From the NCBI RefSeq assembly GCF_000012925.1, contig NC_007517.1:60001-92000 (forward strand): a DNA stretch of 32,000 nucleotides, written 5' to 3'. Position 1 is the first letter of the stretch. Each line of letters starts with the position of its first letter. This DNA is from Geobacter metallireducens GS-15 (lineage in GTDB: Bacteria > Desulfobacterota > Desulfuromonadia > Geobacterales > Geobacteraceae). Made by a program: the position numbers and the translations under genes. The notes beneath the pieces were generated by a model. That model saw only the letters and a list, made by a program, of their open reading frames with translations, did no database searches and was not told where the DNA came from. This document shows positions 7,283 to 29,542 of the stretch, piece after piece.

Positions 7283-7489
7283 TTACTCCGTGAAGAGCGG
7301 TTCCTTGGTCGTTTCGGGACGCTCCTCCTTGCGGTCGAGAGTACAGCTGTCCCGGGTGGCAGAGGCCGTCGCCCCTTCATCCTGGCGCTTGAGCAGGAGG
7401 GAGGCCAAGTCGAGAATCTCCTGCTTTCCGGCAGGATTCAGACGGCGAAATTCAGATATGAGACGGTGTTCGTCAAGGGTCAGGTCCAT
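7283..7489 (-). CDS. Small (68 aa) hypothetical helical protein, probably co-transcribed with the transglutaminase-like gene
   Basis: The ATG at 7489 is preceded by AAGGAG at 6 nt spacing. The longer ORF-track start (7567) would overlap the predicted promoter. The stop lies 9 nt before the next start. Confidence 0.5.
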   Translation of the reverse strand: MDLTLDEHRLISEFRRLNPAGKQEILDLASLLLKRQDEGATASATRDSCTLDRKEERPETTKEPLFTE

Positions 7490-7538
7490 GGAGGGCTCCT
7501 TTGGTGGAATTGTTGGAAAATCGGCTGAATCTGAGGAG

Positions 7539-7567
7539 GTTATACCATAAACCGCAGAGGGGAGCAA
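7539..7567 (-). promoter_or_regulatory. Sigma70-type promoter for the small-protein/transglutaminase operon
   Basis: On the minus strand: TTGCTC (7567-7562), a 17-nt spacer, then TATAAC (7544-7539). Confidence 0.45.
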
Positions 7568-7643: not shown

Positions 7644-7672
7644 TTGCAGGGGTGGCAGCAGCACGGTATACT
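7644..7672 (+). promoter_or_regulatory. Strong sigma70-type promoter with no ORF immediately downstream
   Basis: TTGCAG (7644-7649), an exactly 17-nt spacer, then TATACT (7667-7672), preceded by an AT-rich tract. Confidence 0.5.
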
Positions 7673-7763: not shown

Positions 7764-7781
7764 TGTGCCACGTGTGACACA
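7764..7781. promoter_or_regulatory. Site A of a repeated 18-bp palindromic motif (putative activator binding site)
   Basis: TGTGCCAcgtGTGACACA. The two halves are reverse-complementary at 7 of 9 positions. Confidence 0.5.
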
Positions 7782-7793
7782 GTGCTCTCCGGG

Positions 7794-7811
7794 TGTGCCA
7801 TTGGTTGCACA
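7794..7811. promoter_or_regulatory. Site B of the 18-bp motif, 30 bp from site A and overlapping a possible -35 of the regulator gene
   Basis: TGTGCCAttgGTTGCACA. It contains TTGCAC (7805-7810), which lies 16 nt upstream of TATATG (7827-7832). Confidence 0.45.
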
Positions 7812-7894
7812 GGGAGGCGGGCCTGGTATATGATCCAGCGGTGGATCAGGCAATCAACAGAGTGTCAGGCCTAACATTATCAGCTGGGAGAACC

Positions 7895-10165
7895 ATGGAA
7901 CCGATCATTACCGTAAAAGAGAAGTGCCGTAAATGCTACTGCTGTGTCCGGAGTTGCCCGGTCAAGGCGATCAAGGTGGCCAAGAGCTACACCGAGATCA
8001 TCGTCGACCGGTGCATCGGCTGCGGCAACTGTCTCAGCAACTGCCCCCAGCAGGCAAAGATGGTGGCCGACAAGGTGGGGGTGACCGAAAAGCTCCTCTC
8101 CTCGGGGGAGGAAGTTATCGCCGTGCTCGGATCCTCTTTTCCCGCCTTTTTCCACAATGTTACCCCCGGTCAGTTGGTGGCGGGCCTCAGGAAGATCGGC
8201 TTTGCCGAGGTCCACGAAGGATCCTATGGGGCCGAACTGATTGCCGACGATTATGCCCGAATCACGTCGGAAAAGGGACACCCCCGTATCTCGTCCCACT
8301 GCCCTGCCATCGTCGATCTCATCGAGCGCCACTACCCGAAGCTCGTGGGGAACCTCGTGCCGGTGGTGTCCCCCATGGTGGCCATGGGGCGGTATCTCAA
8401 GGGGACCCTGGGGCAGCACGTGAGGGTTGTCTACATAAGCTCCTGCGTTGCCAACAAGCTGGAAACGCAGACCCAGGAGACCCGCGGCGCCGTTGACATC
8501 GTTCTGACCTACCGGGAACTGGAGGGTATCTTCCGGAGCCGCCAGATAGCCCTGCCGGCCCTTGCCGACGAGCCCCTCGACGGAATCAGGCCGGGGGCCG
8601 GCCGGCTTTTTCCCATTGCCGACGGGACGTTCCGGGCCTTCGGCATCCCTTTTGATCCCCTGGACACCGAGATCGTCGCCGCCTGTGGCGAGGTGAACGT
8701 CATGGGTATCATCAATGACCTGGCAGCTGGCCGCATCTCCCCCCGGATCGCCGACCTCCGTTTCTGCTACGACGGCTGCATCGGCGGCCCCGGCAGAAAC
8801 CGGGCGCTTACGGAGTTTTACCGCCGCAACCGGGTGATTGCCCACTTCAAGCAGGAGGTCCCCTGCCGGACGGTCCCCAATTCCCTCCTTGAGGCAGGGC
8901 GGGTCTCCTTTGGCCGCAGCTTCGCCAGCAAGTACGCGAAACTGGAGGCCCCCAAGGCGAACGACGTCCGCAAGATCCTCAACGCCACCAACAAGTTCAC
9001 GGTGAAGGACGAGCTCAACTGCCGGGCCTGCGGTTACCGCACCTGCCGCGAGTACGCTGTGGCAGTCTTTCAGGGGCTCGCGGAGATTGAGATGTGCCTC
9101 CCTTACAACCTCCAGCAACTGGAGGAGGACCGGGGGCGCCTCATTCAGAAGTACGAGTTGGCGCGGCGGGAACTGGAACGGGAGTACGGGGACGAGTTCA
9201 TCGTGGGCAACGACCGCAAGACCCTGGATGTGCTCGGCCTCATCAAACAGGTGGGACCCACCCCCACAACGGTTCTCATTCGGGGGGAGTCAGGTACCGG
9301 CAAGGAGCTCACCGCCCGGGCGATCCACCGCTACAGCAAGCGCAACGACAAACCGCTGGTTACCGTCAACTGCACCACTATCACCGACTCTCTCCTGGAG
9401 AGCGAACTCTTTGGCCACAAGCGGGGAGCCTTCACCGGTGCCGTTGCCGACAAGAAAGGGCTCTTTGAGGCCGCCGACGGGGGGACGATCTTCCTCGATG
9501 AGATCGGCGACATAACCCCCAAGCTCCAGGCGGAGCTCTTGCGGGTTCTCGATATGGGGGAGGTGCGCCCCGTGGGGGGGACTGCAGCAAAAAAGGTGGA
9601 TGTGCGCCTCATTGCCGCCACCAACAAGAACCTGGAACAGGGGGTCCGCGAGGGGTGGTTCCGGGAGGATCTCTATTACCGGCTCAACGTCTTCACCATT
9701 ACCATGCCCCCCCTGCGAAGCCGCGTCGAGTCGATTCCCATTCTGGTCCACCACTTTATGGACAAGGCAAGCACCAAGCTCAACAAGCGGATGGTCGGCA
9801 TCGAGGACCGTGCCGTCAAGGCGCTCACAAAGTACCCGTGGCCCGGCAATATCCGTGAGATGCAGAACGTCATCGAGCGGGCTGCCGTTCTCACCCATGA
9901 CGGCGTGATCCGGGTCGAGAACTTTCCCCTTGCCCTCTCTGAGGGGCTTGAGGAGGGGTTCGCCACGGGGCTCGACATCCACGCAGCATCGTTTCGGTCC
10001 GAGCGGGAGCAACATATGGGGAAGCTGGAGAAAAAGCTTATACAGCGCTACCTGACGGAGGCCAACGGCAATATTTCGCGGGCGGCGAAGCTGGCAAACA
10101 TCCCCCGGCGGACCTTTTATCGGCTTCTCGATAAGTACCGCCTCAGGGAACGGGATGTTCGCTAA
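7895..10165 (+). CDS. Sigma54-dependent transcriptional activator with N-terminal 2x[4Fe-4S] ferredoxin and [FeFe]-hydrogenase-like sensor domains and a C-terminal Fis-type HTH
   Basis: Ferredoxin motifs CRKCYCCVRSCP and CIGCGNCLSNCP. Hydrogenase-like motifs SSHCPA, SSCVANKLE and FCYDGCIGGPG, plus a CRACGYRTC Fe-S-like motif. AAA+ core with GESGTGKE, GAFTGA and ESELFGH. HTH NISRAAKLANIPRRTFYRLL. The ATG at 7895 follows GGGAG. The ORF-track start at 7793 is a GTG inside motif site B. Confidence 0.85.
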   Translation: MEPIITVKEKCRKCYCCVRSCPVKAIKVAKSYTEIIVDRCIGCGNCLSNCPQQAKMVADKVGVTEKLLSSGEEVIAVLGSSFPAFFHNVTPGQLVAGLRKIGFAEVHEGSYGAELIADDYARITSEKGHPRISSHCPAIVDLIERHYPKLVGNLVPVVSPMVAMGRYLKGTLGQHVRVVYISSCVANKLETQTQETRGAVDIVLTYRELEGIFRSRQIALPALADEPLDGIRPGAGRLFPIADGTFRAFGIPFDPLDTEIVAACGEVNVMGIINDLAAGRISPRIADLRFCYDGCIGGPGRNRALTEFYRRNRVIAHFKQEVPCRTVPNSLLEAGRVSFGRSFASKYAKLEAPKANDVRKILNATNKFTVKDELNCRACGYRTCREYAVAVFQGLAEIEMCLPYNLQQLEEDRGRLIQKYELARRELEREYGDEFIVGNDRKTLDVLGLIKQVGPTPTTVLIRGESGTGKELTARAIHRYSKRNDKPLVTVNCTTITDSLLESELFGHKRGAFTGAVADKKGLFEAADGGTIFLDEIGDITPKLQAELLRVLDMGEVRPVGGTAAKKVDVRLIAATNKNLEQGVREGWFREDLYYRLNVFTITMPPLRSRVESIPILVHHFMDKASTKLNKRMVGIEDRAVKALTKYPWPGNIREMQNVIERAAVLTHDGVIRVENFPLALSEGLEEGFATGLDIHAASFRSEREQHMGKLEKKLIQRYLTEANGNISRAAKLANIPRRTFYRLLDKYRLRERDVR

Positions 10166-10212: not shown

Positions 10213-10230
10213 TGTGCCATCGGTGACACA
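10213..10230. promoter_or_regulatory. Site C of the 18-bp motif, in UAS position about 95-110 bp upstream of the sigma54 promoter
   Basis: TGTGCCAtcgGTGACACA, followed by an AT-rich stretch (about 10240-10320) that could accommodate DNA bending. Confidence 0.55.
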
Positions 10231-10324: not shown

Positions 10325-10340
10325 TGGCATGCAAATGGCA
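10325..10340 (+). promoter_or_regulatory. Sigma54 (-24/-12) promoter
   Basis: TGGCATgcaaaTGGCA. GG is at 10326-10327 and GC at 10338-10339, the canonical 12-nt register of TGGCACG-N4-TTGCW. It lies about 60 nt upstream of the ATG at 10400. Confidence 0.7.
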
Positions 10341-10399: not shown

Positions 10400-10591
10400 A
10401 TGGGCAGAATGAGAGAAAATCCGCGGTACAACGTCATATCCATGAGAATCAGCGACGAGGAGCGTGATCGGCTCCAGCAGATAATGGAGGCAACCCAGAA
10501 GAGTGTCTCCGACATCATGCGCGAGGCCATGGAGATTTTCGCCGTTCAATTGCAAAAGACGGAGCAGCCCCACCACCAGAAGGCCGCTTAA
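10400..10591 (+). CDS. 63-aa ribbon-helix-helix (CopG/Arc-like) DNA-binding protein
   Basis: NVISMRISDEERDRLQQIMEATQKSVSDIMREAMEIF fits a beta-strand/helix/helix RHH pattern. GGAGGA sits 7 nt before the ATG. The gene is followed directly by a strong terminator. Confidence 0.65.
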   Translation: MGRMRENPRYNVISMRISDEERDRLQQIMEATQKSVSDIMREAMEIFAVQLQKTEQPHHQKAA

Positions 10592-10627
10592 GAAAAAAGG
10601 GCCGCTACTTGCGGCCCTTTTTCTTAA
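10592..10627. terminator. Bidirectional intrinsic terminator shared by the RHH gene (+) and cysS (-)
   Basis: A6-GGGCCGC-tactt-GCGGCCC-T5, nested in a near-perfect CTTAAG...CTTAAG palindrome. Confidence 0.8.
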
Positions 10628-10633
10628 GCTGAT

Positions 10634-10651
10634 TGTGCCAAAGGTGTCACA
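10634..10651. promoter_or_regulatory. Site D of the 18-bp motif, between the terminator and the cysS stop codon
   Basis: TGTGCCAaagGTGTCACA. Confidence 0.4.
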
Positions 10652-16633: not shown

Positions 16634-17338
16634 TTAGAGGTCGAGATGGAGGGCGGCTGCGCGCTCCGCCGGCTTGAGGGGAGGCGCTCCGTCGTTCTGC
16701 ATGAGGACCTTGCCGCCGTACTCGGCGTTTTTCCGGACGAGAACTTCGGCCTTGTCCGGGTCCCGCTTGAGGAAAGCCTCGATGATTTTATCGTGCTCCT
16801 GCACCGATATCTTCATCCGTCCGGGTAGGCTCAGGGACGCGTAGCGCAGGCGCTGGAACTTGCGAACGAGGTTTGTAATCAGTTCGTAGAGCTTTTCGTT
16901 GTCGGCTGCCTTGAGGAAAAGATCGTGAAAGTCATTATGGATTCGAAAGAAGTGCTTGATGTCACCGTCGTCGGCCATGTGCCGAAGCCGGTCATTGATG
17001 TTGCGGAGTCGCTCGATATCCTTCGAGGAGAGTTTTTCGCAGGCCCGGCGGGCCGCATACCCTTCGAGGATGCTCTTGATGGCGTAAAATTCCTCCACAT
17101 CCCGGGGGGAGAAGGCCGTTACCACAGCACCCTTGCGGGGGATGACGGTCAGGTACCCTTCCGACTCCAGCTGGCGGAACGCCTCGCGGATCGGGGTGCG
17201 GCTGATGCCGAAACGCTCGGCGAGGTCGGGCTCGGCAACCTTTTCCCCCGGCCTGAGCGCGCCGGTCATGATGGCGTCGCGGATGGTTTCGAGTATCTTT
17301 TCCCTGAGGGTCAGGTGCTTTTCCAGCGTTTTTTTCAT
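16634..17338 (-). CDS. GntR-family (FadR/FCD subtype) transcriptional regulator
   Basis: Winged-helix region LAERFGISRTPIREAFRQLESEGYL, followed by an all-helical FCD-like C-terminal domain. Confidence 0.88.
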   Translation of the reverse strand: MKKTLEKHLTLREKILETIRDAIMTGALRPGEKVAEPDLAERFGISRTPIREAFRQLESEGYLTVIPRKGAVVTAFSPRDVEEFYAIKSILEGYAARRACEKLSSKDIERLRNINDRLRHMADDGDIKHFFRIHNDFHDLFLKAADNEKLYELITNLVRKFQRLRYASLSLPGRMKISVQEHDKIIEAFLKRDPDKAEVLVRKNAEYGGKVLMQNDGAPPLKPAERAAALHLDL

Positions 17339-24642: not shown

Positions 24643-25314
24643 TTATGATGCCGGCCGTTCCGTAACGTGGCTTCGACAGAAGAGGTGGAGGCCACAGCCG
24701 GGGCAGAGGGGGCGCTTGCGGCAGTGGCGCTTGCCGTGCTCCACGATGAGGGCGTGGTACTCGTTGAAGAGCCGGACGTCGGGCGGCAGGTTGGCCATGA
24801 AGAGATCTCGCACCTCATCGTAGCCGGCCGACCCGTTCAGAATCCCCAGGGCCGCGAAGAGACGCTTCGTGTAGGCATCCACCACGAAGGTCGGTTTCCC
24901 CCCCGCGTAGAGAAGGATCGAATCAGCGGTCTCCGGGCCGATCCCCCGCACCCCCAGCAGTTCCTCCCGCAACGCGTGCCAATCCCCTGCGAACATCCGC
25001 TCCAGGCTTCCCCCGTGCCGTTCCCAGAGATACCCCGCGAAATCCTTGAGCCGGAGGCTCTTCACATTGAAGTACCCGGCCGGCCGGATGGCCTCCGCCA
25101 GGGAGGCGGCCGGCACGTCGCGGAGGGCTTCGGGGGAGAGGAGGCTCTCACGCTTCAGGTTTGAGATGGCTTTTTCCACGTTTCCCCAGTTGGTGTTCTG
25201 GGTCAGGATTGCGCCGACGCAGACCTCGAAGGGGGTGTCGGCGGGCCACCAGTGGCGGGGTCCGTAGGCGGCATGGAGGATGTCGAAGATCTCCTGCAGG
25301 ACCGCGTCGAGCAT
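24643..25314 (-). CDS. Endonuclease III-like HhH-GPD DNA glycosylase family protein with a C-terminal [4Fe-4S] motif
   Basis: Helix-hairpin-helix LLGVRGIGPETADSILLYA, catalytic-Asp region VVDAYTKR, and cluster motif CRKRPLCPGCGLHLFC (C-x6-C-x2-C-x5-C). The start ATG shares one base with the glnE stop (TGATG). Confidence 0.8.
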   Translation of the reverse strand: MLDAVLQEIFDILHAAYGPRHWWPADTPFEVCVGAILTQNTNWGNVEKAISNLKRESLLSPEALRDVPAASLAEAIRPAGYFNVKSLRLKDFAGYLWERHGGSLERMFAGDWHALREELLGVRGIGPETADSILLYAGGKPTFVVDAYTKRLFAALGILNGSAGYDEVRDLFMANLPPDVRLFNEYHALIVEHGKRHCRKRPLCPGCGLHLFCRSHVTERPAS

Positions 25315-28300
25315 CAGGCCGTCCCGCCGGGGGAGTCTCCCCCCATAATCCGCTCGTAGATCCGCCGCACCGCCTCGGTGGTCTCCTCGTACTCCCGCAT
25401 GAGAAGATCTCCCGGGTGCCGCAGCTTCGGGTCGTAGCCGAGGCGGCGGGCCAGCTTGTCCAGGTACTCCCGGGGACCCCCCAGGTCGTTGATGGAGTAG
25501 TCGTGGATGAGGCGGAGCCGGTTCTCCAGCCGGCGAAGGAACTTGTATCCCGCTTGGAGCGTCGCGAATTCCTCCTCGGTCAGCACCCCGCAGAGCCGCA
25601 TCGCCTTCAGGGCCAGGAGCGTGTTGGTGCTCCGGACCTCGGGGAGATTCACCCCGTGGCAAAGCTGGAGGTACTGGACCATGAACTCGATGTCCACGAT
25701 TCCCCCCCGGCCGGTCTTGATGTTGTAGCTCCCCTCTTTCTCCTTGGCCAGCTCCACCTCCATGCGGGTCCGCAGCCGGTGGATCTCTCCGCGTACCGTC
25801 TCGTCGGCGCCGGAGCCGTAGACCGTTCCCCGCATGACCTCCTCGATCTGGCGCCGCAGGCGCTCGTCGCCAAAGACCACCCGCGCCTTGGTGAGGGCCT
25901 GGCGTTCCCAGACCTGGGCCTCCTCCCGGTGGTAGGTCCGGAACGACTCCAGGGAGGTGACGAGGGGGCCGGCGTTCCCCGAGGGGCGGAGCCGGGTGTC
26001 GATTTTGTAGACATACCCCTCGCGGGTGGGGGTGGTGAGGATGGAGATGATCTTCTGCCCCAGTTTGGCGAAATACTCCCGGTTCGTTATCTGCTTCTCG
26101 CCGTCGGTTTCTCCCTGCTCATCGTAGATGTAGATGATGTCCAGGTCCGAGTGGTAGTTGAGCTCGTTCCCCCCCATTTTCCCCATGGCCACCACGGCGA
26201 AGTGGGCCTGGCGCAGATCGCCGTCGGCGTCCCGGTACATGGGCCTGCCAAAGCGGGCCAGCTCTTTTTTGCCCATGCGGCAGGCGGCGGAGAGGCAGAC
26301 CTCGGCGAGCCCCGTCAGCTGGTAGGTGAGTTCCGACTGCCCCAGCTTGCCGTAGATGTCGGTAAGTCCAATCCGGAGGAATTCTTCGTTGCGGTACCGC
26401 CGCAGGATGTCGAGGCGCTCCTCGTAGTCCACTGCCGCGGCGAGCATCCCTTCCAGTTCTCCTTCCATGGCCTCCCGATCCTTGATGAAGGAGGCGTAGG
26501 AACGGGAGACGAGGCTGTCCAGCAGTTCCGGGTGGCCGATGAAGATCTTGGACAGGAGCTCCGAGGTGGCGAAGAAGGAGACCAGGAGCTTCAGTATCTC
26601 CCGGTTCTCGGCCAGGAGGGCGTAGAAGGAGGAGCGGGAGCCCACGGCGCAGAGGAACCGCTCCAGGTTGGTGAGGGCCATGTCCGGATCGGGGGAGGCA
26701 AAGATCTCCTGGAGGAGGAGCGGTGATATCTGCTCCAGAAGCCGCCGGGACCGCTCGGTGAGATGGGCCCGGGGAGGGCCGTCCCGCAACAGCAGCAGGT
26801 TCTCGTAGGCGGCATCCACGTTCTCGAAGCGCCGCTCCGCCAGCATGTCCTTGATGAAGTCTGGGTCGGCGCCCCGGTCGAAGAAGTAATACGTCTCCGG
26901 CCGCACTTCCTCCTTCAGCTTCTCATCCCGGGAGAGGAAGAGTCCGCCGTAGATGGACGAGACCCGCTCCCGATGCCCCTCCAGGACCTCTCTGAACTTA
27001 GTCAGGCCGTCCTGCCGCAGGTAGCCGCAGCGCCGGGCCAGGGCCAGCATCTCGTCGTCCTTCTTGGGAAGGGAGTGGGTTTGGCGCTCCTGGACCACCT
27101 GGATCCGGTGCTCCACGGTGCGGAGGAACCGGTAGGCCTCGGCCAGGGCCGCAGCATCCTCCTCGGCGATGATGCGGCCGTCCTTCAGGGTCTCCAGGGC
27201 TTTGAGGGAGTTCCGTTCCCGCAGGGCCGGGTTTTTGCCGGCGTAGACGAGCTGGAGCGCCTGGATGAAAAACTCGATCTCCCTGATGCCGCCGCGCCCC
27301 AGCTTGATGTTCAGCTCCCCCTCCTGCTGCCGGGCCAGGGAGGCGTCGATCTTTTTCTTCATGGCCATCATGTCCTCGATCAGGTTGTAATCGAGGTACT
27401 TGCGGTAGATGAAGGGCTCGATGGCGGCCAGGATTCGTTTTCCCAGTTCGATGGAGCCGGCCACGGGGCGGGCCTTGAGCATGGCGGCCCGCTCCCATGA
27501 CTGGCCCCAGTACTCATAGTAGGTGACCGCCGAGTGGAACGAGCAGGCCATGTCGCCGCTCTTCCCCTCGGGGCGAAGCCCCATGTCGACCCGGAAGACG
27601 AAGCCGTCGGCCGTCACCTGGGAGAGCGCCTTGCTGACCATCTCCCCCAGCTTCACGAAGAAGGCGTGGAGGGTGGTCGTGCCCGTTGCCCCTCCCCGGC
27701 CGTCGGGAATGCCTGCCGTCTCCCCCTGGTCCGAGGAGTAGAAGTAGATGAGATCGATGTCCGAGGAGAAGTTCAGTTCCCGGCCGCCGAACTTCCCCAT
27801 ACCCAGGATGGTGAACTCCGCCTCCCGGAGGCCGTCGGGGGTCTCCATGAGGGGGAGGCCGTGCTCGGCCACGAGCTTTTTCCGGGCCACGTCGTGGGCC
27901 ACCTGGAGGGCGGCCGCGGCCAGGGACGACAGCTCCCCCGTTACCTCCTCCAGGGGGGCGACGCCGGTCAGGTCCCGGGCCGCGATCCGGAGGATCTCCA
28001 TGAACTTGAAACGGCGCAGGAGCGGGAAGAGGGCGGCGTAGTCGGTATCCTTCGGCACCTGGGCGCGGAGCTCCGCCAGCATCTCCGTCTCGCTCCGGCG
28101 GATTGCCAGTGCTTTGCGGATAAAGAGATAGTGGAAGTAGGAGGGGTCGCGGCAGAGGATGTTGACCAGGAAGGGGGAGGAGCCGCAGATGGTGAGGAGC
28201 TGGGAGAGCCCGTCCCGCCGGGAGCAGACGTCGAGGAGCTCGTCCCGGTCCGCCACGCCGCTCACCCGCTCCAGCCCGTTCAGGGCCATGTCCGCCTGGG

Positions 28301-28505
28301 GCGCGGCCAGGGAGGCGGCGGCGATGCCGCGGACGAGGCTGTCGGGGAAGACATGCTGAAGGAGGCGGAGGTTCGTGGCCGACCGGGCCGCGTAGGTGAA
28401 CCCCAGCTCCTCCAGGAGCGCCATGAGGAGCTGGTCGTTGTCGATGTCGGGGGAGGTGCCGATGGCCTCCTCCAGGCGGCGGGCCAGGGAATCGGTAGGG
28501 GTCAT
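25314..28505 (-). CDS. glnE: Bifunctional glutamine synthetase adenylyltransferase/adenylyl-removing enzyme
   Basis: Two nucleotidyltransferase modules: [20 protein letters not shown] and [21 protein letters not shown]. The ATG at 28505 overlaps the mtnA stop (ATGA). The longer ORF-track N-terminus lies out of frame inside mtnA. Confidence 0.9.
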
Positions 28506-29542
28506 GGTTTCACGAGGGCCTTGAGCTTCGCCGTGTAATCGCCGGTAATCACCCCCTTCTCGGTGATGATGCCGGCGATGTAGCGGGCCGGCGTCACGTC
28601 GAAGGCGGGATTGCGGACCGCGATCCCCTCCGGCGCCACGGGAAGCCCCTGGAGGTGGGTCACCTCCCGGGCGTGGCGCTCCTCGATGGGGATCTGGTCG
28701 CCGTTTTCGAGCGACAGGTCGAGGGTGGAGGTGGGGGCCGCCACGTAGAAGGGGATGTTGTTTTCCTTGGCCAGAACCGCCACGCTGTAGGTGCCGATCT
28801 TGTTGGCCGTGTCGCCGTTGGCCGCGATCCGGTCGGCTCCCACCACGCAGCAGGTGATCTCGCCCCGCTTCATGAAGAAGCCGGCCATGTTGTCGGAAAT
28901 GAGGGTCACGGGGATGCCGTCCTTCATGAGCTCCCACGCCGTGAGCCGCGCCCCCTGGAGCCAGGGGCGGGTCTCGTCGGCGAAGACCTGGATGTTCTTC
29001 CCCGCCTCGTGGGCCGCCCGGATGACCCCCAGGGCCGTACCGTAGCCGGCCGTGGCAAGGCCGCCGGCGTTGCAGTGGGTGAGTACCGTGGCCCCCTCGG
29101 GGATCAGGCCGGCGCCGTGGCGGCCGATGGCCTTGCAGAGCGCCAGATCCTCCTCCTCGATGCGGATCGCCTCGGCCTTGAGGACTTCGCGCACCTCGTC
29201 CAGGGAACCGCCGCAGTTATCGGCGGCCACCCGTTTCATACGCTCGATGGCCCAGAAGAGGTTCACGGCCGTGGGGCGGGTGCGGGCCAGGACGTCGCAG
29301 ACGTTATCCAGCTGCCGCAGGAACGACTCGTGGGTATCCGCGATGATCTCCCTGGCCCCCAGGGCCACACCCATGGCCGCCGCCACCCCGATGGCCGGCG
29401 CCCCCCGGATGATCATCCCCCGGATCGCCTCGGCCACACTCTTGTAGTCGCCGTACTCGCAGTAGACCTCTTCGCCCGGAAGCCGGGTCTGGTCGATCAT
29501 TATTACCTTGTCGTCGCGCCATTCGATAGTTCTAAAGGACAT
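28502..29542 (-). CDS. mtnA: S-methyl-5-thioribose-1-phosphate isomerase
   Basis: [18 protein letters not shown]-terminus, eIF-2B-like fold motifs, [18 protein letters not shown]. Confidence 0.9.

Follow-up and report, generated by a model that had tools for sequence, protein, structure and literature searches.

What does a hydrogenase-like protein sense when it is built directly into a transcriptional activator, and what does it switch on? The question is raised by a gene at 7895-10165 (+) of a 32,000-nucleotide stretch of Geobacter metallireducens GS-15 DNA (NC_007517.1, positions 60,001 to 92,000; the whole 32-kb stretch is called the window here), which encodes a sigma-54 enhancer-binding protein (EBP) with an N-terminal module related to [FeFe] hydrogenases. 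We found that this module resembles, in its sequence, those of known sensory hydrogenases of the HydS type, and that the gene stands next to an orthologue of the repressor gene hgtR, with conserved DNA sites before and after the activator gene. How the putative sensory [FeFe] hydrogenases of groups C and D relay their signal is unresolved in the field, and the activator-hgtR pair offers a single-polypeptide input-output system with a predicted enhancer, a mapped sigma-54 promoter, a known regulon and a growth phenotype. The module may be a hydrogenase-derived redox sensor that responds to over-reduction of the cytoplasm by activating hgtR, a reading to which we give even chances.

A hydrogenase-like module joined to a sigma-54 activator

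The gene (7895..10165, +) is a real open reading frame (ORF), and its product of 756 amino acids (aa) is identical to ABB30304.1, WP_004514179.1 and UniProt Q39ZM0 in an exact-sequence look-up; the same match sets the start codon as the ATG at 7895. UniProt names Q39ZM0 'Iron-sulfur cluster-binding sigma-54-dependent transcriptional regulator, FehydlgC and ...'. The 90%-identity cluster of this entry has members in G. hydrogenophilus and G. grbiciae, and one cluster member has been named automatically as 'hydrogenase, group C2'.

The protein begins with a 2x[4Fe-4S] ferredoxin-like domain (aa 6-54; 7910..8056, +; Pfam Fer4 / Fer4_10) that contains two CxxCxxCxxxC motifs (C11/14/17/21 and C40/43/46/50), with all eight cysteines conserved. 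This is followed by an [FeFe]-hydrogenase H-domain (aa 74-299; 8114..8791, +; Fe_hyd_lg_C PF02906, E=8e-45), which phmmer against the PDB matches to HydA2 of HDCR (1e-23), and by a C-terminal four-cysteine iron-sulfur domain (aa 374-403; 9014..9103, +; PF04060 'Putative Fe-S cluster', E=7e-11). The cysteines of the latter, C376, C379, C384 and C401, are invariant across the family and align to the C379...C404 cluster of TamHydS. A long linker helix in the AlphaFold model (aa 402-432; 9098..9190, +) connects the final ligand of the clusters with the sigma-54 AAA+ core and its lid (aa 436-685; 9200..9949, +; PF00158 and PF25601). Here the Sigma54_activat match (PF00158, aa 436-602, E=2.3e-68) spans the whole domain, AAA_lid_14 (PF25601) covers aa 608-685, and the Walker A motif GESGTGKE, FLDEIGD and GAFTGA (aa 511-516) are all present. 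A Fis-type helix-turn-helix (HTH) domain completes the protein (aa 710-748; 10022..10138, +; HTH_8, E=1.4e-9). By sequence, the predicted protein is an EBP of the NtrC family, with Walker motifs and GAFTGA in its AAA+ core and an HTH for which there is a candidate upstream activating sequence (UAS) near a -24/-12 promoter.

The predicted structure agrees with this assignment. In the full-length AlphaFold model the mean predicted local distance difference test (pLDDT) score is 86, and about 90 over the sensor, and Foldseek matches are dominated by sigma-54 AAA+ cores, with template modelling (TM) scores of 0.9-0.95 to NtrC1, FleQ and FlrC. A sensor-only model (aa 1-430), which was built from a shallow alignment and is of modest quality (pLDDT 66), has [FeFe] hydrogenases as all of its top 50 matches in the PDB (E 1e-16 to 1e-14, TMq 0.50-0.60), including TmHydA, CbA5H, CpI, HDCR HydA2, DdH and apo-CrHydA1. 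In the full-length model C401 lies at the start of the helix that runs through aa 402-432 into the AAA+ domain and may serve as a signalling helix. Relatives fused to histidine kinases have the same C-L-P-Y junction, which points to a helical relay shared by both kinds of protein.

Pairwise alignments to solved [FeFe] hydrogenases place SSH135-C136-PA on TSC299-C300-P, SSC184-VANKLE on MPC355-TAKKFE, and FC291-YDGC295-IGGPG on AC499-xxGC503-xxGGGQP. The resulting equivalents of the H-cluster cysteines, C136, C184, C291 and C295 (CpI C300, C355, C499 and C503), are invariant in 32 homologues. Indeed, all 16 cluster cysteines are invariant across the 32 fusion proteins wherever the sequence is complete, as are S81 (the equivalent of CpI S232) and K188, and this holds for many other sensor residues though the homologues are only 40-70% identical.

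An earlier note on this DNA, made by reading the sequence alone, had described two ferredoxin-type four-cysteine motifs, relatives of the three H-cluster motifs and a further CxxCx4C...C motif, carried on the same polypeptide as an AAA+ core with GAFTGA and a Fis-type HTH. Pfam and alignment place every one of these elements where the note had put them, and its equivalences to TSCCPxW, MPCxxKxxE and MACxxGCxxGGGQP are those of the alignments above. Two of the checks that it proposed bear on this: the Pfam families Fer4, Fe_hyd_lg_C, PF04060, Sigma54_activat and HTH_8 were all found, and the sensor-only model matched only [FeFe] hydrogenases, with the cluster cysteines aligned by sequence. To speak of relatives of the H-cluster motifs is correct as far as alignment goes, but the wording masks the replacement of several residues of the [2Fe] pocket.

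The canonical L1, L2 and L3 motifs (TSCCPxW, MPCxxKxxE and ExMxCxxGCxxGGGQP) are in fact absent from the activator. Its L1 reads SSHCPA (C299 to His), its L2 SSCVANKLE (M353 to S, P354 to S, K358 to N, with the Lys shifted by +1) and its L3 DLRFCYDGCIGGPG (M497 to R, GGGQP to GGPG); in activator numbering, His135 stands for Cys299, Arg289 for Met497 and Ser/Cys80 for Pro231. These changes belong to a set shared by proteins of the Desulfuromonadales type: C299 to His, P231 to Ser/Cys, M353 to Ser, P354 to Ser, K358 to Asn/Ala/Gly and M497 to Arg, with an invariant Lys one position past K358. The APS motif and GPCxxKKxE are kept in Clostridia-type activators, kinase-fused proteins and stand-alone relatives. 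A K358N variant is said to destabilise the H-cluster, and the same change is among those found at K358 in this clade (N, A or G). We considered K188 as the true equivalent of K358, by way of a one-residue insertion relative to TamHydS (SPC-AAK vs SSCIAAK), but it probably is not, since the kinase-fused and Clostridia-type relatives (GPCIAKK) need no gap in the alignment and would place K188 at K359. The spacing of motif 3 also varies: it is CxGC (three residues) in six kinase-fused and Clostridia-type relatives (P0060, P0077, P0098, P0117, P0078 and P0106) and CxxxC in group A enzymes, TamHydS and the Geobacter type (CxxGC in the latter), and the difference falls at the bridging cysteine.

Whether the activator holds a genuine H-cluster is uncertain, to judge from its sequence, because the [2Fe]-pocket residues are replaced and because published Geobacter inventories contain no [FeFe] enzymes or maturation clusters. 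Those for G. sulfurreducens list four [NiFe] hydrogenases and Hyp, Ehr and Hdr clusters. The work of Coppi in 2005 reportedly agrees with them in having no [FeFe] hydrogenases. Among the neighbouring genes in the window we found no hydrogenase, hyd or maturase genes.

The module has many relatives. A search with sensor aa 1-430 returned more than 1100, of which the best matches were full fusions to a sigma-54 AAA+ core; others, about 40% identical in the sensor, are of the HydDB group C1 type, with HisKA and HATPase_c as fusion partners, and a few stand alone. A scan of a genome collection with full-length alignment gave at least six full fusions (loci L001-L006) among the matches listed, mixed with generic sigma-54 activators; the G. 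metallireducens locus itself was not among the matches listed. L001 and L002 are from metagenome-assembled genomes (MAGs) of Geobacteraceae (75% and 61% identical), L003 is from a Desulfuromonas MAG (57%) and L004 from a deltaproteobacterial MAG (58%).

The sensor can be compared with two putative sensory hydrogenases, TamHydS of group D (M2e) and TmHydS of group C (M2f). The TamHydS sequence used here was stitched from three reading frames of a damaged coding sequence in a 2026 supplement, and it reproduces 17 published residue numbers. The sensor is co-linear with it, having a 2x[4Fe-4S] F-domain, an H-domain, a C-terminal four-cysteine cluster, a residue other than Cys at C299 and no PAS domain. 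Both proteins have both four-cysteine motifs of the F-domain; ISSA137CPA in motif 1 of TamHydS corresponds to ISSH135CPA in the activator, E289-GLAC-IGGC-IGGP in motif 3 to D287-LRFC-YDGC-IGGP, and DC379GSCGSPTC...DC404 in the C-terminal cluster to NC376RACGYRTC...MC401. On the proton path of group D (E252/E289/S249/D265), E289 aligns to the invariant D287, and the poorly aligned E252 region has no clear acidic equivalent. Judged by this alignment, the module is a HydS-type (group C/D-like) unit in which an activator, fused directly, takes the place of a PAS domain or of no output at all. TamHydS and TmHydS are like the activator in module order, in the replaced proton-relay Cys299 and in the GCIGGP of motif 3. 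They differ in output, which is AAA+ and HTH fused directly in the activator, none in group D and a PAS domain in group C; in the C299 position, which is His in the activator and Ala in TamHydS and TmHydS; and in K358, P231, P354 and M497, which are replaced in the activator, where the E252 relay of TamHydS also lacks a clear equivalent.

Other systems are alike in part. The kinase-fused sensors P0060, P0077, P0098 and P0117 (group C1-type) are about 40% identical over the whole module, including the C-terminal cluster and the C-L-P-Y-helix junction, but differ in their HisKA and HATPase_c output, their canonical APS and GPCxxKKxE and their CxGC motif 3. Nie et al. 2019 listed Fer4, Fe_hyd_lg_C and FeS as input domains of Clostridiales sigma-54 activators, the same Pfam architecture as in the Geobacter activator, and our searches gave homologues of the Clostridia type (P0078, P0106, L005 and L006); these differ in being about 40% identical, in having the canonical [2Fe]-pocket Lys and APS motif, and in having no hgtR downstream. 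HoxBC/HoxJ/HoxA of Cupriavidus necator (Ralstonia eutropha) is comparable at the level of the system, in that a hydrogenase-type sensor controls a sigma-54 activator for H2-dependent expression. However, it consists of a regulatory [NiFe] hydrogenase, a kinase and an activator as three proteins linked by a phosphorelay, and its sensor is not homologous to that of the activator. In two fusion proteins of the Syntrophotalea acetylenica type (P0081 and P0112), a five-residue deletion removes the GAFTGA loop (alignment columns ~520-530), and these may be unable to activate sigma-54.

The hgtR gene, its promoter and the candidate regulatory DNA

Downstream of the activator lies the orthologue of hgtR (10400..10591, +), which encodes a 63-aa ribbon-helix-helix repressor (ABB30305.1) with weak Pfam matches to RHH_1 / DUF6290 and the UniProt name 'Hydrogen-dependent growth transcriptional repressor'. 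The termini of the ORF, MGRMREN... and ...QPHHQKAA, match the primer-encoded termini of G. sulfurreducens HgtR (MGRMREN... and ...SQPGDQKAA). Between the activator stop codon and the end of this unit we found, in order, a near-palindrome, an AT-rich stretch, a -24/-12 element, a Shine-Dalgarno sequence, the 63-aa ORF and an intrinsic terminator read from the sequence (10599..10625, +). The sigma-54 promoter, TGGCATGCAAATGGCA (10325..10340, +; TGGCAT-N5-TGGCA), is conserved in L001 and L002, and as a bare pattern the -24/-12 element is not significant (three found vs 2.2 expected). The same layout of activator gene, palindrome, sigma-54 promoter, hgtR and terminator is present in L001 and L002, where hgtR is kept at 70-78% identity. 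From this adjacency and the conserved sites, we infer that the activator switches on hgtR.

The palindrome TGTGCCA-N4-TGaCACA occurs at four sites in the window vs 0.09 expected by chance. Palindrome 1, TGTGCCAcgtgTGACACA (7764..7781), is a candidate binding site of the activator upstream of its own gene, at a position whose equivalent is kept in L001-L004. Palindrome 2, TGTGCCAttggTTGCACA (7794..7811; pattern and consensus scan), overlaps the -35 element of the promoter proposed for the activator gene. Palindrome 3, TGTGCCAtcggTGACACA (10213..10230; pattern and comparison), is the candidate enhancer (UAS), about 130 bp upstream of the start site of hgtR, and L001 has a perfect TGTGCCAgacaTGGCACA at this position. 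In L001-L004, TGTGCCA-N4-TGGCACA recurs with at most two mismatches in both places, ahead of the activator gene and in the gap from its stop codon to a downstream sigma-54 promoter, so that the palindrome is kept at both positions in five loci, the window included. It is likely, with good comparative support, that this palindrome is the binding site of the activator. Palindrome 4, TGTGCCAaaggTGTCACA (10634..10651; pattern match), is not conserved in L001; it lies past the hgtR terminator, in the interval that separates hgtR from the convergent cysS.

The activator gene has an elaborate control region of its own. Palindromes 1 and 2 stand between the terminator of an atoC RNA and the activator start codon, together with a putative sigma-70-like promoter, TGCACA-17-TATGAT (7806..7834, +), which is a consensus match alone (9/12 positions). 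Because palindrome 2 overlaps the -35 element of this promoter, the arrangement suggests that the activator represses its own gene. The atoC RNA motif (RF01733; 7665..7752, +) is a hairpin followed by an intrinsic terminator, and it scores 93.9 bits in cmscan, where the gathering score is 50. The seed alignment of Weinberg et al. 2010 contains NC_007517.1/67665-67752, to which the motif in the window is 100% identical. Its fold energy is -30.3 kcal/mol (z = -4.6). A sigma-70-like promoter, TTGCAG-17-TATACT (7644..7672, +), read from the sequence, would drive this RNA. L001 has the same arrangement (TTGCAG-17-TATAAT), and the atoC promoter of the window falls below the threshold of the consensus scanner. 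The atoC RNA could serve the activator gene as leader or attenuator, or it could be a small RNA in its own right. The loop of its terminator, CUUUCCCUCCUAG, is CU-rich and looks like an anti-Shine-Dalgarno sequence (the ribosome-binding site of hgtR is GGAGGA).

Part of this system is already known, both its architecture and the hypothesis of an H2 sensor (annotation, 2010 paper), and the target has been characterised in the sister species G. sulfurreducens. Ueki and Lovley 2010 (NAR 38:810, PMC2817479) proposed that the hydrogenase-like activator upstream of hgtR in that species is an H2 sensor. They mapped the -24/-12 promoter of hgtR (GSU3364), which depends on RpoN, by primer extension and found the gene to be monocistronic with a terminator, induced on H2 and needed for growth on H2, and its product to be a repressor of genes of the tricarboxylic acid (TCA) cycle and energy metabolism, among them citrate synthase, ATP synthase and NADH dehydrogenase (PMC2817479). 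Leang et al. 2009 had noted the activator gene adjoining GSU3364 and a predicted RpoN promoter. Compared by published description, the EBP of G. sulfurreducens has the same family, synteny, iron-only-hydrogenase-like domain and H2-sensing hypothesis, and an atoC RNA upstream as in G. metallireducens; it differs in species (G. metallireducens does not grow on H2) and otherwise in nothing of kind.

In choosing the 10325 promoter as the likely target, the earlier note was right: the layout is kept in L001 and L002, and the G. sulfurreducens counterpart has been mapped. Its statement that the system had not been characterised is true of the biochemistry of the protein, but the architecture and the H2-sensor idea were already in the UniProt annotation and in Ueki and Lovley 2010. 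No paper that characterises the protein came from our searches of the literature on GSU3363, on sigma-54 with HydS or sensory hydrogenases, and on Geobacter with group C, and the sigma-54 fusion goes unmentioned in a review of [FeFe]-hydrogenase diversity from 2022. The hydrogenase reviews and papers that we examined are silent on the activator, and work on Geobacter has not taken it further; bringing the two fields together could make signalling by sensory hydrogenases directly testable. What is added here is the clade-specific remodelling of the [2Fe] pocket, the co-linearity with TamHydS, the palindromes as candidate sites of the enhancer and of autoregulation, and the connection with the atoC RNA.

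Two side observations concern hgtR. A regulator gene of the GntR/FCD family lies at 16634-17338 (-), about 6 kb from hgtR, and HgtR of G. sulfurreducens has a gntR gene among its direct targets (PMC2817479). In L003 (2461-2715) and L004 (8288-8595), the activator gene is followed by a sigma-54 promoter and palindromes but not by hgtR; in its place come about 110 nt of non-coding sequence, closed by a near-identical terminator, CGCCGCACCGGGATCTCTCTCCCCCGGGCGGCG-T8, and this could possibly be a sigma-54-dependent small RNA. We rejected the idea that it is a copy of the atoC RNA, for Rfam gave no atoC match and only a sub-threshold mmgR (22.5 bits vs a gathering score of 41).

The signal that the module may read

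In the mechanism that we propose, the activator would bind the TGTGCCA-N4-TGGCACA palindromes as a dimer or oligomer. When the cytoplasm becomes over-reduced, whether by H2 oxidised by [NiFe] hydrogenases or by limiting electron acceptors, the four [4Fe-4S] sites (two N-terminal, [4Fe-4S]H and one C-terminal) would be reduced, and the change would pass by way of the C-terminal cluster (ligand C401) into helix 402-432 and release the AAA+ core. With the HydS-type iron-sulfur module switched on, the core would assemble and remodel sigma-54 RNA polymerase at the 10325 promoter, and the monocistronic hgtR would be transcribed. HgtR would then repress citrate synthase, ATP synthase, NADH dehydrogenase and other genes, and the two palindromes over the activator's own sigma-70-type promoter would provide negative autoregulation. 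Such a system could clarify how Geobacter shuts down the TCA cycle under excess reducing power.

We modestly favour this redox reading because of the pocket replacements, the published inventories, the lack of growth of G. metallireducens on H2, the behaviour of a delta-bccR mutant and the C-terminal cluster of TamHydS. G. metallireducens has no Hyb uptake hydrogenase and cannot grow on H2, although the activator-hgtR pair is kept there. In the delta-bccR mutant hgtR was up more than 1000-fold during Fe(III) reduction with no H2 added. H2 does not reduce the C-terminal cluster of TamHydS, to which a structural or signalling role is ascribed.

Several points weigh against redox sensing of this kind. 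All four H-cluster cysteines, including the bridging one, and S81 are invariant, and Lys188, one past the K358 position, or the nearby Arg289 could stabilise a [2Fe] subsite. The absence of HydEFG, even if true, is not decisive, for active [FeFe] hydrogenases exist in organisms without HydEFG maturases (Greening et al. 2024). In addition, hgtR is induced by H2 (PMC2817479), the evidence that links the activator to hgtR consists of adjacency and conserved sites, and the quality of the sensor-only model is modest (pLDDT 66).

As to what the H-domain itself has become, we tentatively suggest, at somewhat less than even chances, that in the Desulfuromonadales it has been converted into a site that does not activate H2. 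It would be either a Nar1-like redox sensor with the [4Fe-4S] part only, or a site with another ligand or cofactor in the former [2Fe] cavity, and would report over-reduction to sigma-54. Nar1 / NARFL (IOP1) is a eukaryotic protein with the H-domain fold in which the cluster cysteines are kept and which functions without the [2Fe] subcluster. It is a possible analogue of the [4Fe-4S]-only form, to which we claim no membership, and it differs in acting in cytosolic iron-sulfur assembly rather than signalling and in having no AAA+ or HTH domains. If this conversion of the H-domain is true, the activator would be a case from bacteria in which a hydrogenase fold was exapted for redox signalling, and the system is one that is genetically tractable and whose promoter and phenotype are known.

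Direct sensing of H2, as hypothesised by the earlier note and by Ueki and Lovley, and like the proposals for TmHydS and TamHydS, would require a complete H-cluster, made by HydEFG or by another route; H2 at the [2Fe] site would reduce the cluster chain or shift the conformation and so activate the AAA+ core. The conserved four cysteines, S81, D287 (the equivalent of TamHydS E289) and GC-IGGP motif fit this proposal, as do the co-linearity with TamHydS, which binds an H-cluster in vitro, the automatic 'hydrogenase, group C2' label in the 90%-identity cluster, and maturase-independent H-cluster formation reported in other lineages (Greening et al. 2024). The induction of hgtR by H2 and its requirement for growth on H2 (PMC2817479) also speak for it. 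Against these stand the canonical K358, P231, P354, M353 and M497, replaced in this clade and kept in its sister clades; the published Geobacter inventories, with neither an [FeFe] hydrogenase nor Hyd maturation clusters; and, for the signal, the fact that G. metallireducens keeps the pair without growing on H2, and the induction of hgtR without added H2 in delta-bccR. Taken together, we consider a direct H2 sensor rather unlikely.

A sensor of oxidants (O2, NO or CO), in which the clusters, while intact and reduced, hold the protein either active or inactive and cluster damage or ligand binding flips it by a logic of the FNR/NsrR/NorR type and hgtR tracks anoxia or stress instead of the electron donor, is improbable. 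Four predicted [4Fe-4S] sites are inherently sensitive to O2 and NO, and NorR and NifA provide a precedent for iron-based sensing in sigma-54 activators. The 32-kb neighbourhood, however, contains no oxidative or nitrosative-stress genes, and hgtR differs between H2- and acetate-grown cultures that are both strictly anoxic (PMC2817479).

Very improbable is a hydrogenase-like module that senses nothing and is a structural relic in a constitutive activator set by its own expression (atoC RNA, autoregulation) or by a partner protein: an elaborate upstream region with an atoC RNA, two palindromes and a separate promoter would suit it, but the 16 cluster cysteines and many sensor residues are invariant at 40-70% identity, and the same module has been recruited to histidine kinases, as is typical of an input domain.

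The rest of the window

The other genes of the window encode an IS110 transposase fragment, a truncated GGDEF protein, M16 peptidases, a transglutaminase-like protein, CysS, GlnS, IspF, IspD, SelA, the GntR/FCD regulator, a TrkA-type channel, RsmB, Rpe, a NUDIX protein, a response-regulator diguanylate cyclase, an MtnA-like protein (IF-2B family), GatB and GatA. The C-terminal fragment of the IS110/IS116-family transposase (22-504, +) and the truncated GGDEF ORF (2201-2626, +) are likely to be remnants of an insertion or rearrangement. A putative 94-aa ORF with no Pfam match (7283-7567, -) is divergent from the region of the atoC RNA and the activator. A 1207-aa ORF (25314-28937, -) lies opposite three + strand ORFs without Pfam matches (25161-26726, 26763-27500 and 27534-28538).

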